A stretch of 64,000 nucleotides of DNA. Source: Candidatus Spongiisociaceae bacterium (GTDB lineage Bacteria > Actinomycetota > Acidimicrobiia > Spongiisociales > Spongiisociaceae). The position numbers were made by a program, and so were the translations under genes. The notes beneath the pieces are model-generated. The model was not told the origin of the DNA. It did no database searches and worked only from the letters and a program-made list of their open reading frames with translations. Of the stretch, positions 33,059 to 36,977 are shown piece by piece. Where the stretch lies: the NCBI GenBank assembly GCA_965202665.1, contig OZ241841.1, positions 768,001-832,000 on the forward strand, written 5' to 3'. Numbering within the stretch: position 1 is the first letter of the stretch; each line of letters opens with the position of its first letter.

Positions 33059-33517
33059 ATGCAAGTAGCCATCGGGGCGGACCATGCCGGCGTTTCACTA
33101 AAAAGCTTCCTAGTGGAACATCTGGAGGGACTGGGTTATCAGGTGGCCGACCTGGGAACCCATTCCGAGCAACCGGTGGACTACCCGGATTCGGCGGCGG
33201 CGGTGGGGGAGGCGGTGCGCTCCGGGGCGGCGGAGCGGGGCATCGCCGTGTGCGGGTCGGGAGCGGGGACGGCCATCGCCGCCAACAAACTGCCCGGTAT
33301 CCGGGCGGCGGTGGCCCACGACCACTACACCGCCCATCAGATGGTGGAACACGACGATGTCAACCTGCTGTGCCTGGGGGCCAGGGTGGTGGGCCAAAGC
33401 TTGGCGGCCGAGCTGGCCGAAACGTTCCTGACCGCCGTATTCTCCGGCGAAGAACGCCACCTGCGCCGCCTGCAAAAAATCCACGCCCTGGAAAAAACGA
33501 AACCCGTTGCCGACTAA
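33059..33517 (+). CDS. rpiB: Ribose-5-phosphate isomerase B
   Basis: GADHAG, DYPD, CGSGAG and ANKLPGIRAA motifs. Confidence 0.95.
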   Translation: MQVAIGADHAGVSLKSFLVEHLEGLGYQVADLGTHSEQPVDYPDSAAAVGEAVRSGAAERGIAVCGSGAGTAIAANKLPGIRAAVAHDHYTAHQMVEHDDVNLLCLGARVVGQSLAAELAETFLTAVFSGEERHLRRLQKIHALEKTKPVAD

Positions 33518-33869
33518 TCAACCTCCGGCCGTATCAGGCAAAGCAAATCGAAAAGGGCGTTATCTACCTTGACTCTGTCCGACGCTGAAAGGCGGCCCAA
33601 GGTTGTTACGTAACGGTTCTGGTTGACGGAACGGATCTGCTCGCACTGCAGGTAGCTGGTTTCCTCGAGCCCGTTTTCCTCGCTTGGCTCCACCTCAATA
33701 TACGAGTCTAAATCGCGGGGCGTAGTCGTAAAGGGCGCCACAACCACATTGGGAACATCCAGCCCGGCGGGGGACCCAGAACCAAAGCTGGGCGGTAACT
33801 AGCGGGGTCCGCCGGGTACTCCGGGTCCCTCGTAACAAAATCCACCAACCCTATTTCGTTGACCGGCAT
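33514..33869 (-). pseudogene. PemK/MazF toxin copy C (4-nt deletion frameshift near 33760)
   Basis: MPVNEIGLVDFVTRDPEYPADPASYRPALVLGPPPG, then in another frame DVPNVVVAPFTTT...LLCLIRPEVD*; near-identical to 34945-35295. Confidence 0.8.
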
Positions 33870-34199
33870 CCGGCGAAGCAAATCGCGAATGGTGTTATCT
33901 ACCTTGACTCTGTCCGACGCTGAAAGGTAGCCCAAGACGTTGATGTGAGGGTCCTTGTTAACGGAGCGAATCTGCTCGCACTGCAGGTAGCTGATTTCCT
34001 TAAGGCCGTTCTCCTTGTTTGGTTCCACTTCAACATACGAGCGGAGGTCGCGGGGCGTTGTCGTAAAGGGGCCCACAATCACGTTGGGACCCGCTGGCCC
34101 TCTCAGCGGGGGACCCAGGACCAAAGCTGGGCGGAGATCAGCAGGTTCCGCCGGGTACTCCGGACCAAAATCCACCGATAATATTACATTGGTGATCAT
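33708..34199 (-). CDS. PemK/MazF toxin copy B, fused in frame (no stop) to the start of copy C
   Basis: MITNVILSVDFGPEYPAEPADLRPALVL..PFTTT..QCEQIRSV..DLLRR|MPVNEIG. Confidence 0.75.
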   Translation of the reverse strand: MITNVILSVDFGPEYPAEPADLRPALVLGPPLRGPAGPNVIVGPFTTTPRDLRSYVEVEPNKENGLKEISYLQCEQIRSVNKDPHINVLGYLSASDRVKVDNTIRDLLRRMPVNEIGLVDFVTRDPEYPADPASYRPALVLGPPPGWMFPMWLWRPLRLRPAI

Positions 34200-34210
34200 A
34201 GCTCGCCACG

Positions 34211-34276
34211 TTAGCAAGCAACCCTTGCCAAACCCCCTGGACCAAAATCCACCAACCATATTTCGTTGACCGGCAT
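34211..34276 (-). pseudogene. 21-aa MazF stub
   Basis: Reads MPVNEIWLVDFGPGGLARVAC*, at the position equivalent to the copy A start (offset 1019). Confidence 0.7.
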
Positions 34277-34319
34277 ATCGCTATTCCTGCGACAATGCTT
34301 CGGCTACAAATACCTTTCC

Positions 34320-34850
34320 CTATTCCCGTTCGGGGCCAACCTCTCCCGGGGCGGCGTCCTGCGACATTACCTTGGCTACCAAATCCTTCCATTCATACGG
34401 ATCTACGTACCAAGGGTTCGGTTTTCTCCATTCCAACACAGCTCCGGCCGACCATCCATATCCAAACTGCTCCGTTGCTAAAGCCTCTACCGCTCTGGCT
34501 ACTGCCCTGTAGGCCCGGACGGCTCGGAGGGCCAGCTCCGGGTTCCCTATAATTTCGGCTATCTCATCGAAGCCCGCCAAGGCCTTTTGGAGGGGACCCA
34601 AATCGTAGATGACATACCCGCCCAAATCGCCTTGGGACTCCGCCGTCTGGTTGAATTCAGCCGCCGCCCGGCGAACTTCGTCCAGATCTAAACTCCGGGC
34701 CGCGTCGCGGGCCGACGGGAAGTCGAAGGCTTTGATGGCCGCCAGGACCGCCTCGGCGAGTTCGGCCCCTTCCTCCTCACCGCCCAGCTCCCGTAGCAGG
34801 TTGTGGACATCCGCCACCTGTTGCTCGCGACTCTTCATCAAGGGAAGCAT
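34320..34850 (-). CDS. Orphan 176-aa MazF partner, copy 2
   Basis: 169/176 identical to 35339-35869; AAGGAG upstream. Confidence 0.8.
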   Translation of the reverse strand: MLPLMKSREQQVADVHNLLRELGGEEEGAELAEAVLAAIKAFDFPSARDAARSLDLDEVRRAAAEFNQTAESQGDLGGYVIYDLGPLQKALAGFDEIAEIIGNPELALRAVRAYRAVARAVEALATEQFGYGWSAGAVLEWRKPNPWYVDPYEWKDLVAKVMSQDAAPGEVGPERE

Positions 34851-34944
34851 AATACGCTCCTTTCGTCGTTGCGATCTCGTCGAGCGGATTCGCCGGGATT
34901 GGCGCCGCCCCCGTTTCCAACATCAAAACTTTTGGGGGAGACAA

Positions 34945-35295
34945 CTAATCAACTCCCGGCCGCCTCAGGCAAAGCAAATCGAGAATTGCTTTATCCACCT
35001 TGACTCTGTCCGACGCTGAAAGGCGGCCCAAGGTTGTTACGTAACGGTTCTGGTTGACGGAGCGGATCTGCTCGCACTGCAGGTAGCTGATTTCCTCAAG
35101 CCCGTTTTCCTCGCTTGGCTCCACCTCAATATACGAGTCCAAGTCGCGGGGCGTAGTCGTAAAGGGCGCCACAACCACGTTGGGAACATCCACCCAACCC
35201 GGCCGGGGGCCAAGAACCAAAGCTGGGCGGTAACCAGCGGGTTCCGCCGGGTACCCCGGATCAAAATCCACCAACCAGATTTCGTTGACCGGCAT
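34945..35295 (-). CDS. PemK/MazF-family endoribonuclease toxin, intact copy A
   Basis: EIWLVDFDP...EPAGYRPALVL..VVVAPFTT..ENGL..SYLQCEQIRSV..LGRL; the catalytic-type Arg and Thr positions are retained. Confidence 0.88.
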   Translation of the reverse strand: MPVNEIWLVDFDPGYPAEPAGYRPALVLGPRPGWVDVPNVVVAPFTTTPRDLDSYIEVEPSEENGLEEISYLQCEQIRSVNQNRYVTTLGRLSASDRVKVDKAILDLLCLRRPGVD

Positions 35296-35338
35296 ATCGC
35301 TATTCCTGCGACAATGCTTCGGCTACAAATACCTTTCC

Positions 35339-35869
35339 CTATTCCCGTTCGGGGCCAACCTCTCCCGGGGCGGCGTCCTGCGACATTACCTTGGCTACCA
35401 AATCCTTCCATTCATACGGATCTACGTACCAAGGGTTCGGTTTTCTCCATTCCAACACAGCTCCGGCCGACCATTTATATCCAAACTGCTCCGTTGCTAA
35501 AGCCTCTACTTCTATGGCTACTGCGCTGTAGGCCCGGACGGCTCGGAGGGCCAGCTCCGGGTTCCCTATGATCTCGGCTATCTCATCGAAGCCCGCCAAG
35601 GCCTTTTGGAGGGGACCCAAATCGTAGATGACATACCCGCCCAAATCGCCTTGGGACTCCGCCGTCTGGTTGAATTCAGCCGCCGCCCGGCGTACTTCGT
35701 CCAGATCGAATCTCTCGGCCGCGTCGCGGGCCGACGGGAAGTCGAAGGCTTTGATGGCCGCCAGGACCGCCTCGGCGAGTTCGGCCCCTTCCTCCTCACC
35801 GCCCAGCTCCCGTAGCAGGTTGTGGACATCCGCCACCTGTTGCTCGCGACTCTTCATCAAGGGAAGCAT
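35339..35869 (-). CDS. Orphan 176-aa MazF partner (putative non-canonical antitoxin), copy 1
   Basis: Sits directly upstream of mazF in the same orientation; acidic and helical. Confidence 0.8.
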   Translation of the reverse strand: MLPLMKSREQQVADVHNLLRELGGEEEGAELAEAVLAAIKAFDFPSARDAAERFDLDEVRRAAAEFNQTAESQGDLGGYVIYDLGPLQKALAGFDEIAEIIGNPELALRAVRAYSAVAIEVEALATEQFGYKWSAGAVLEWRKPNPWYVDPYEWKDLVAKVMSQDAAPGEVGPERE

Positions 35870-35997
35870 AATACGCTCCTTTCGTCGTTGCGGTCTCGTC
35901 GAGCGGGTTCGCCGGGATTGGCGCCGCCCCTGCTTCCAACATACAAAACTTTGGGGGAGACAACTAGGGGGTTGTTTTTTGACGACGGAGCGGGAGC

Positions 35998-36977
35998 CCG
36001 GCCCGAGGGCGACTGCTCCGGAGGGCGGCGAAAGGGGGTAGATTTGGGGCGTTCGGGAGGAGAAGCCCGCAATGTTCTAATCGTAGAACAGTAGGCGGAG
36101 GGGCGGCAGGTCGTAAACATCCGCCCGCTGCCACCCCCCCCCCCGTCCGCTACCCGGCGGGAATCCCGCCCCTCGGACCCGGCGGATGGTCGTCATCCCC
36201 CTGGATTCGGCGACTCGGCGGGATGATGTCGCAATCCCCTATCGGAGTAAAGGAATCCCTCCGGCCTGGACGGGCGGGCGGGTTATCCTCCCACCGCCGT
36301 TTGTCCTGCGACCGAACCGAACCCCGGCGGGAATCCGGGAATCATCCCCCGGCGGGATGACCGCCGCCAAGTCCTGCGACCCGCCGCCGTTCGTCATTCG
36401 TGGATTCCGAACCGCCCGCCCGGTCGGTCGCCGTCATCCCAAACAGGCTACGCAGTTCGTCCCGAACCGCCGCCTGCGTCTCCGCCAACTCGGCGGGCGA
36501 CAGGTTAGCCGCCGCCCCTTCCCGGATAGCCGCCCATCCGTCCGTAGTCGGATAATGGCCGCCCACTTCCTGGATGATGGCATTTAATGCCGCCGCCAGT
36601 TCGGCGGGCGACATCCCGCAGTTCGGGTCGTTAATCGGGTTCGTCATCATTCCCCCTTTTCCTAGTTATCGGAATACCCTACCCCCGAATTAAACAGTAT
36701 GGTGGATGGTCTAACAAAGCCTGATTTTCAGACACCTCTGATGATTACTTACAACCACAGGCTGTACCGTGGAATAGATAAGCACCAGGCACCAGAGCAG
36801 ACAGCACAGGATCGTCAGTGTCAGTATCAGGGTCATACGCGGGATCTGCTTTGGCCTGCTTTGTTGTGTGGTTCTGGTTCAGGTCCCGCCCTGCTGTCCT
36901 GCTGGATCCGGCCCGGGGGCGCCTGCTCCGGAGGGTGGCGAAAGGGGGTAGATTTGGGGCGTTCGGGAGGAGGAGCC
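35998..36977 (+). repeat. 70-bp imperfect direct repeat (35998-36067 / 36908-36977, 66/70) flanking an ~840-bp insert
   Basis: CCGGCCCG(A/G)GGGCG(A/C)CTGCTCCGGAGGG(C/T)GGCGAAAGGGGGTAGATTTGGGGCGTTCGGGAGGAG(A/G)AGCC occurs twice. Confidence 0.9.
36342..36650 (-). CDS. Orphan 102-aa protein with internal SPAELA repeat
   Basis: AAGGGG RBS; lies inside the repeat-flanked insert. Confidence 0.55.
   Translation of the reverse strand: MMTNPINDPNCGMSPAELAAALNAIIQEVGGHYPTTDGWAAIREGAAANLSPAELAETQAAVRDELRSLFGMTATDRAGGSESTNDERRRVAGLGGGHPAGG

Follow-up and report, generated by a model that had tools for sequence, protein, structure and literature searches.

The window analysed in this study, a stretch of 64,000 nucleotides (nt) from a bacterium of the Candidatus Spongiisociaceae (contig OZ241841.1, positions 768,001 to 832,000), contains an array of PemK/MazF-type toxin genes between positions 33514 and 35966, in which a protein of 176 amino acids (aa), here called the partner, is encoded in front of a mazF gene. 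The explanation that we favour, by a little more than an even chance, is that the partner is an expanded MazE which likely still neutralises the toxin MazF A in a birth-and-death array. According to this explanation, the partner would descend from the 78-aa ribbon-helix-helix (RHH) MazE that accompanies this MazF lineage elsewhere, and would have been stretched by local duplications of a helical segment. It would probably no longer act as a DNA-binding repressor, operon autoregulation being lost, and its retained C-terminal helices (residues 118-163) would plug the MazF A dimer. The partner-mazF unit would duplicate in tandem, extra partners persisting and extra toxins (a stub, C and probably B) decaying. 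No publication on this locus or on a repeat-expanded MazE was found in full-text literature searches, which covered few subscription papers and no supplements.

All genes of the array lie on the - strand in the order partner 1, mazF A, partner 2, mazF stub, mazF B and mazF C (Table 1), as had been laid out in an earlier, sequence-only reading of this DNA. The protein A is a member of the PemK/MazF family, and its gene starts 43 nt past the stop of partner 1, its immediate upstream neighbour on the same strand. In the window's genome (G000), PF02452 matches nothing besides A, B and the 3' part of C. The antitoxin position previously proposed for the partner is supported. This genome has neither another PF02452 gene nor a canonical cognate MazE.

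The partner and the cognate 78-aa MazE

The nearest outside relatives of A are 112-aa MazF proteins sharing 43-54% identity with it (loci L006-L015 and L040-L119). A 78-aa RHH-type gene overlapped or abutted the mazF start at all 10 of the best loci from genomes of the same bacterial family and was present at 78/80 metagenome loci, the other two having only 53 and 61 nt upstream. The MazFs linked to partners formed one clade (100/100) with respect to eight canonical rows. The 78-aa MazE was absent from the window's genome (best expect value, E, 0.137). It must be noted that two members of this widespread antitoxin family, when scanned, fell below the Pfam cut-off (RHH_1, E 7e-4 and 0.035). As a separate observation, a 72-aa open reading frame (ORF) at G000:C1:478368-478586 (-) was weakly like an RHH antitoxin profile (E 0.79); the next gene is a membrane-protein-like ORF and not a mazF, and the 72-aa ORF is a remote candidate for action in trans.

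The partner was compared with this MazE family in both directions. A partner profile of 57 rows placed these MazE ORFs in 48 of the 50 top positions among 5,936 ORFs, and the reversed profile in 3. In the reciprocal search, made with a MazE profile of 64 rows, partners of the far clade (defined below) ranked 1-7 of 22,558 sequences (E 0.007-0.33); a first profile of 10 MazE sequences had given no significant result. When profiles were aligned with hhalign, partner residues 118-163 matched MazE 32-70 (probability 21-45%, E 2e-4 to 1e-3) and partner 13-42 matched MazE 10-38 (probability 3-6%); the segments were colinear, and their score was reached by 0/60 column shuffles in each of three tests. 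With regard to specificity, five further kinds of antitoxin, all encoded next to mazF in this bacterial family, scored 9.4-13.5, while subsamples of the cognate MazE had median scores of 22.5 (n=5) and 17.9 (n=1). Single partners were also scored against 400 composition-matched genome windows, whose maximum was 23.0, giving 21-31 for the far clade and 13-21 for the near clade. On these alignments we consider it probable that the partner is homologous to the 78-aa RHH MazE.

Residues 13-42 of the partner resemble the RHH helices, residues from about 42 to 103 consist of internal [FY]D[FL] repeats, and residues 118-163 are like MazE's C-terminal half. The insert between the MazE-like segments has about 75 residues and contains conserved columns; its repeats start with FDF (42), FDL (54) and YDL (82), at offsets of 12, 28 and 40. 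A full MazE-MazE tandem was rejected as a description of the partner, given that the alignment of one half with the other yielded only the 52-75/80-103 repeat. Matched residues of partner and MazE include H16/H13, L19/L16, G28/G24, L124/L38, R142/R55, D150/D57 and W154/W61, pairs that were hand-picked in register as invariant in the partner and conserved in MazE. The C-terminal MazE-like motif was invariant in 57/57 partners. Segment 118-163 has a net charge of -5 and lacks the terminal Asp.

The partner was described earlier as acidic and helical with an aromatic tail. Its acidity is confirmed (net charge -16), and the prediction is all-helical at low confidence; in the tail, W147 and W154 are invariant and W141, Y148 and Y152 vary. 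No match to the partner was found in Pfam or PADLOC, and none above the cut-off in NCBIfam or PHROGs. Two structure models had mean predicted local distance difference test (pLDDT) values of 49.6 and 50.0, and fold searches with these low-confidence models returned generic helical bundles (best Z 6.3) and no Foldseek match at E 0.001. Atlas feature searches gave best scores of 0.82-0.83, which are leads only.

The features by which a canonical MazE reads DNA were missing. Ribbon residues T4, T5 and R7, present in 64/64 MazE sequences, are absent from the partner, which has KSREQQV in place of the ribbon strand, predicted at low confidence to be a helix. Boxes of the form GTA[GT]A[CT], a pattern derived from the same canonical loci on which it was scored, occurred within 60 nt upstream of 63/63 canonical genes, with two or more in 61 and a background of 0.03 per 60 nt. 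No such box was found within 60 nt upstream of either partner of the window or of the partner of G004, another genome of the host's genus. The absence of ribbon and boxes is the expected look of lost autoregulation, although an unrelated gene would lack both too. In size, the partner (158-176 aa) also exceeds a canonical RHH MazE (about 70-90 aa). Since it fails the tests of size, ribbon and operator, the partner was not filed as a canonical RHH MazE. The idea of a new antitoxin family was nevertheless not supported, because the partner is remotely colinear with the cognate RHH MazE; judging from these sequences, it is likely a derivative of a canonical RHH MazE that may work like one. Independently of the partner, the strongly conserved GTAGAC-type boxes upstream of the 78-aa antitoxins (L006-L015, L040-L119) constitute a ready operator prediction.

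Toxin copies, strain variation and distribution of the partner

The PF02452 scores of A, B and the 3' part of C were 72.5, 57.6 and 43.5 bits, respectively (cut-off 23.1). A has an intact frame and retains R23 of the RPAL motif together with T46/T47, residues that, from their motif, we take to be the catalytic Arg and Thr reported in the accessible part of PMC11394972. Of the three copies, only A looks intact. B and C had been taken for two toxin genes. In fact, B has no stop and reads in frame into C, and C is 4 nt shorter than A near 33758; therefore, the ORF ends at 33708 after 163 aa, with the rest of C out of frame. Two further changes in C, W7G and E18D, affect positions that vary hardly or not at all elsewhere. 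The 110-aa MazF domain of B is 67% identical to A and keeps R23 and the threonines, but two residues are changed (W7L, L8S). Its branch is long (0.68) and its ratio of nonsynonymous to synonymous substitution rates (dN/dS) with respect to A is 0.58, so B may be under relaxed constraint or altered. For the 3' part of C compared with A, dN/dS was 0.24.

The lesions of C were followed in sequencing-run contigs. Those of X1, which is possibly the source sample, and of X3, from another study, match the 4-nt lesion gap-free, so that the lesion is real. In X4 and X5, both from one study, the 4 nt are present, but the letter at 33794 is altered (R23C) and 1 nt is missing at 33606, and the same two lesions account for P0163, a 212-aa B-C fusion encoded on another long contig. 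Each of the two alleles seen therefore has a broken C, and the events that broke it differ. The idea that B and C form an intact MazF dimer in a single chain was rejected, the 212-aa allele without the 4-nt loss being the one that carries R23C and the loss at 33606. A contig of X12 and one of X16 connect rpiB with the 3' end of a partner (33497 or 33499 to 34342); the shorter side measures 44 and 64 nt, and the letters between are unknown. Given this join, these strains appear to lack the stub, B and C at that place. Missing cover of B and C in X12 and X16 was used via the joining contigs only, X11 and X18 being too thin. Strains, and also species, differ in the genes that they carry at the site. 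The proposal of a diversifying RNase set was not supported, with C broken as described and B carrying N-terminal damage and a fused tail.

Variation among the toxins was measured in 28 distinct clade sequences, after two short sequences and one duplicate had been dropped. The N-terminal loop, which had been considered the most variable region, had a mean entropy of only 0.48 bits (residues 12-22, the beta1-beta2 region), compared with 1.15 bits for residues 31-38, 1.04 for 48-54 and 1.07 for 96-110. Residues 50-53 reached 0.68, 1.65, 1.50 and 2.19 bits, respectively, while R50 and L52 are invariant in 70 canonical toxins; this variation could be retuned specificity or relaxation. R23 was kept in 27/28 sequences. 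In a related strain, the 135-aa MazF P0069 has a 25-aa N-terminus duplicated in frame, similar to the window's stub. The starts of stub and B (34199-34276) are 77 nt apart, not 75, which suggests an older arrangement shared with P0069.

The partner family comprised seven clusters at 90% identity, with representatives of 158-176 aa; members of the near clade are 84-99% identical to partner 1 and those of the far clade 58-60%. The partner was present in 1/28 other genomes of the family (G004), absent from 400 other genomes of the class, and not found in the viral contigs, plasmids and phages searched, nor in metagenome contigs, among which near relatives may not have been included. A hidden Markov model search of 1.84 billion representatives gave six matches: P0006 belongs to the family, P0180 and P0181 are matched over only a part of it, and P0182-P0184, which are long repeat proteins, were rejected as summed-repeat artefacts. 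In the data searched, the partner is confined to one genus. It is under purifying selection, with a dN/dS of 0.32-0.38 between G004 and the window copies (rpiB 0.28, hydrolase 0.19).

Linkage to mazF was estimated by a proxy in which partner and MazF proteins were paired when their longest contigs had equal size. Pairs were counted among contigs of at least 5 kb. The proxy is incomplete, as it covered 15/30 members of the largest partner cluster and 10/14 clade MazF clusters. By this measure, 16/22 MazF contigs were paired with a partner contig. A lack of linkage to mazF, which the sequence-only reading had named as a ground for refutation, was seen in part, namely in G004. In the near clade, the two appear linked (15 of 23 partner contigs paired with a MazF contig). 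Eight contig sizes of the near clade carry two partner sequences.

Competing explanations

Several observations weigh against a MazE-derived antitoxin, the main reasons for doubt being the missing terminal Asp and a toxin-free locus. The terminal D75 of MazE has no counterpart in the partner, and far-clade partners end before that region. In a solved relative, a terminal Asp contributes to affinity according to the accessible part of its description, and by its position we take that residue to be the equivalent of D75. In G004 (91% complete), the partner is likewise found at the dodecin-rpiB site, but what follows it is a pair of Cys-rich ORFs on the opposite strand rather than a mazF, and no PF02452 match was found anywhere in that genome. 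Just 1/11 far-clade partner contigs was paired with a MazF contig. R23 has been lost in the clade member P0062, and the RNase activity of A is predicted only. With respect to homology, 25 column shuffles of the partner profile placed 2-47 of the 50, so that one nearly matches; near-clade partners ranked 9 and lower in the MazE search, with E above 1; and the HH probabilities were low for both segments. Near-clade single-partner scores fell inside the null range, and therefore the near clade alone is not significant and the signal comes mainly from the far clade. Just 3/9 invariant MazE columns are identical in the partner (L16, L38 and W61), Y64 being replaced by L or F and T4, T5, R7, A34 and D75 lacking. 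Furthermore, the MazE family was picked after the likeness had been noticed by eye, and the MazE rows are kin.

Among the alternatives, the one that survives best, although we regard it as unlikely, is that the partner, MazE-derived or not, now has a toxin-independent job that accounts for its retention and duplication, the MazF copies being weak or dying passengers with little need of neutralisation. The missing Asp, the low far-clade linkage and the conservation of the partner without MazF in G004 would all agree with it, as would the rpiB-partner join of X12 and X16, which skips stub, B and C and so leaves a partner copy with no toxin behind it, the contig sizes with two partner sequences, and the loss of R23, seen in P0062 as well as in P0163 (C part). 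Against it, A keeps R23 and T46/T47, R23 is nearly universal in the clade, A and the 3' part of C differ at a dN/dS of 0.24, no canonical antitoxin is left to cover A, and the C-terminal MazE-like motif is invariant in every partner.

A second and rather improbable alternative is a signal-gated or anti-phage module, in which the repeat insert would bind a trigger and free MazF variants with different cleavage sites. The conserved columns of the insert agree with this, and so does the variability of MazF 50-53, beside the catalytic Thr, at positions including R50 and L52 of the canonical toxins; relaxed selection would explain this variation just as well. Along its long branch, B has retained an open domain of 110 codons (dN/dS 0.58), but C is broken in both alleles seen. 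The gene content of the site varies between strains and species, and loss of the operator boxes would leave post-translational control only. On the other hand, PADLOC (library of 2023) matched 0/6 proteins at E 0.1, and no partner match was found in viral contigs, phages or plasmids. In its strongest form, to which we give equally little credence, MazE would have traded DNA autoregulation for a repeat-built, ligand-sensing insert gating MazF variants whose loop beside the catalytic threonine is retuned to new RNA targets. If this were true, a type II module would be on its way to becoming an RNase system gated by a sensor, in a lineage of sponge symbionts.

Still less probable, in our view, is that the partner is an unrelated helical orphan behind which, at a variable site, a mazF landed and was co-duplicated, its MazE likeness being chance between acidic helices. 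The low HH probabilities, the column shuffle that nearly matches, the near-clade scores within the null range and the 43-nt gap to mazF instead of the usual overlap could be read in this way. However, chance would have to account for two colinear segments together with reciprocal top ranks, for the higher scores of the cognate family than of the five other kinds of antitoxin, and for one far-clade partner and one far-clade MazF on same-sized contigs. Finally, an assembly artefact has a negligible probability and is already largely refuted: no run contig spans the whole stretch, but the duplicated copies differ, A is only 67% identical to B, the window's B and C alleles are present in X1 and X3 contigs, B, C and the B-C junction all occur in run contigs from studies P1, P2 and P3, and a second long contig codes together for partner-, A- and B-C-type proteins.

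Locus layout and comparison with known systems

The array is placed tail-to-tail against rpiB, the stop of C overlapping that of rpiB, and it contains the duplication with an offset of 1019 bp that was noticed at first reading (714 nt, 96.9% identity; 17/647 nt differences between the copies). The sequence placed beside these observations is STATISTICALLY. The guanine plus cytosine content of the locus is 55-62%, compared with 64-72% in most flanking bins, and a search for a sigma-70 consensus promoter found none. Partners 1 and 2 differ at seven residues, located at 52-54, 115, 119, 120 and 132. These differences are clustered (window 35474-35716 vs 34455-34697) and occur in mixed combinations in other strains, which suggests exchange between copies. 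The habitats named for the listed sequencing runs are marine and sponge metagenomes, and the host bacterium is likely a sponge symbiont.

Table 1. Coordinates of the array and its flanking gene in the window
Feature	Position	Strand	Description
Partner 1	35339-35869	-	176 aa; likely expanded MazE
mazF A	34945-35295	-	116 aa, intact reading frame, PF02452 E 4e-20
Partner 2	34320-34850	-	176 aa, 96% identity to partner 1
mazF stub	34211-34276	-	21 aa
MazF B-C ORF	33708-34199	-	163 aa; B (start ATG 34199) with the first part of C and a frameshifted tail
mazF C pseudogene	33514-33869	-	4 nt missing near 33758 vs A; W7G, E18D
Duplicated unit, copy 1	35254-35966		Leader, partner, start of mazF
Duplicated unit, copy 2	34235-34947		Leader, partner, start of mazF
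rpiB, flanking core gene	33059-33517	+	PF02502 E 1.4e-52

Other features were observed around the site and elsewhere in the genome. A 70-nt direct repeat (94%) occurs at 35998-36067 and 36908-36977 of the window, the second copy just upstream of dodecin; the pair encloses a 910-nt segment that is absent from G004 and has a 102-aa ORF (36342-36650, -), a paralogue of which is found at G000:C1:1137645-1137812 (62% over 56 aa). In G004, the two Cys-rich ORFs between partner and rpiB (L003 8504-9136, -) are related to each other, have 126 and 78 aa and CxxC-type motifs, and gave no Pfam match. Beyond the hydrolase gene, L003 4045-6366 contains a partial second copy of the hydrolase 3' part, an orphan of 128 aa and a protein of 407 aa that is rich in Thr and Ala and starts like a lipoprotein. 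ARAGORN called a tRNA-Sec at G000:C1:1881888-1881976 (-) and a tRNA-like element with a TTA (stop-reading) anticodon at G000:C1:1560765-1560846 (-), which may be an artefact.

If the homology is true, the array would offer a traceable case of an antitoxin that doubled by internal repeats while losing its DNA-reading strand and operator, thereby escaping every family profile tried, and 'orphan' neighbours of MazF can be hidden MazEs. The canonical 78-aa MazE, far- and near-clade partners and about 28 toxin alleles make up a test set for two questions, namely whether a MazEF pair can function in the absence of autoregulation, and for what reason an antitoxin is retained once its toxin has been lost. 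The reach of this is limited by the confinement to one genus in the data searched.

With respect to known systems, the closest is the family of 78-aa RHH MazE and 112-aa MazF itself, which has the same antitoxin-then-toxin order, and in which MazE shares with the partner the H-x-x-L..G helix motif and the L..F..R..DP..W C-terminal motif. Unlike this MazE, the partner has a length of 158-176 aa, the repeat insert and the gap to mazF, and lacks the TTxR ribbon, the terminal DG and upstream GTAGAC boxes; tandem duplication and toxin decay were seen in the window's clade only and not at the 78-aa MazE loci. Among solved structures, the best match of the toxin profile was M. tuberculosis MazE7/MazF7 (PDB 6A6X, 5WYG and 7DU4; mt9 in papers; E 8e-12), and the best match of the cognate MazE profile was chain C of 6A6X (E 0.003), the partner of that best toxin match. 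This pair binds through C-terminal helices according to the accessible part of its description, and C-terminal toxin binding is presented as general for MazE in the available portions of PMC8593223 and PMC5408214. MazE7 keeps the ribbon strand, unlike the partner, for whose models no fold match was obtained. Pairings of MazF-fold toxins with non-standard partners are described in the accessible parts of PMC10440598 and PMC5408214, namely Myxococcus MazF-mx/MrpC and the NetFlax networks. Unlike these, the partner seems to be the cognate MazE in remodelled form, lying next to its toxin and duplicated with it, rather than a swapped-in domain.

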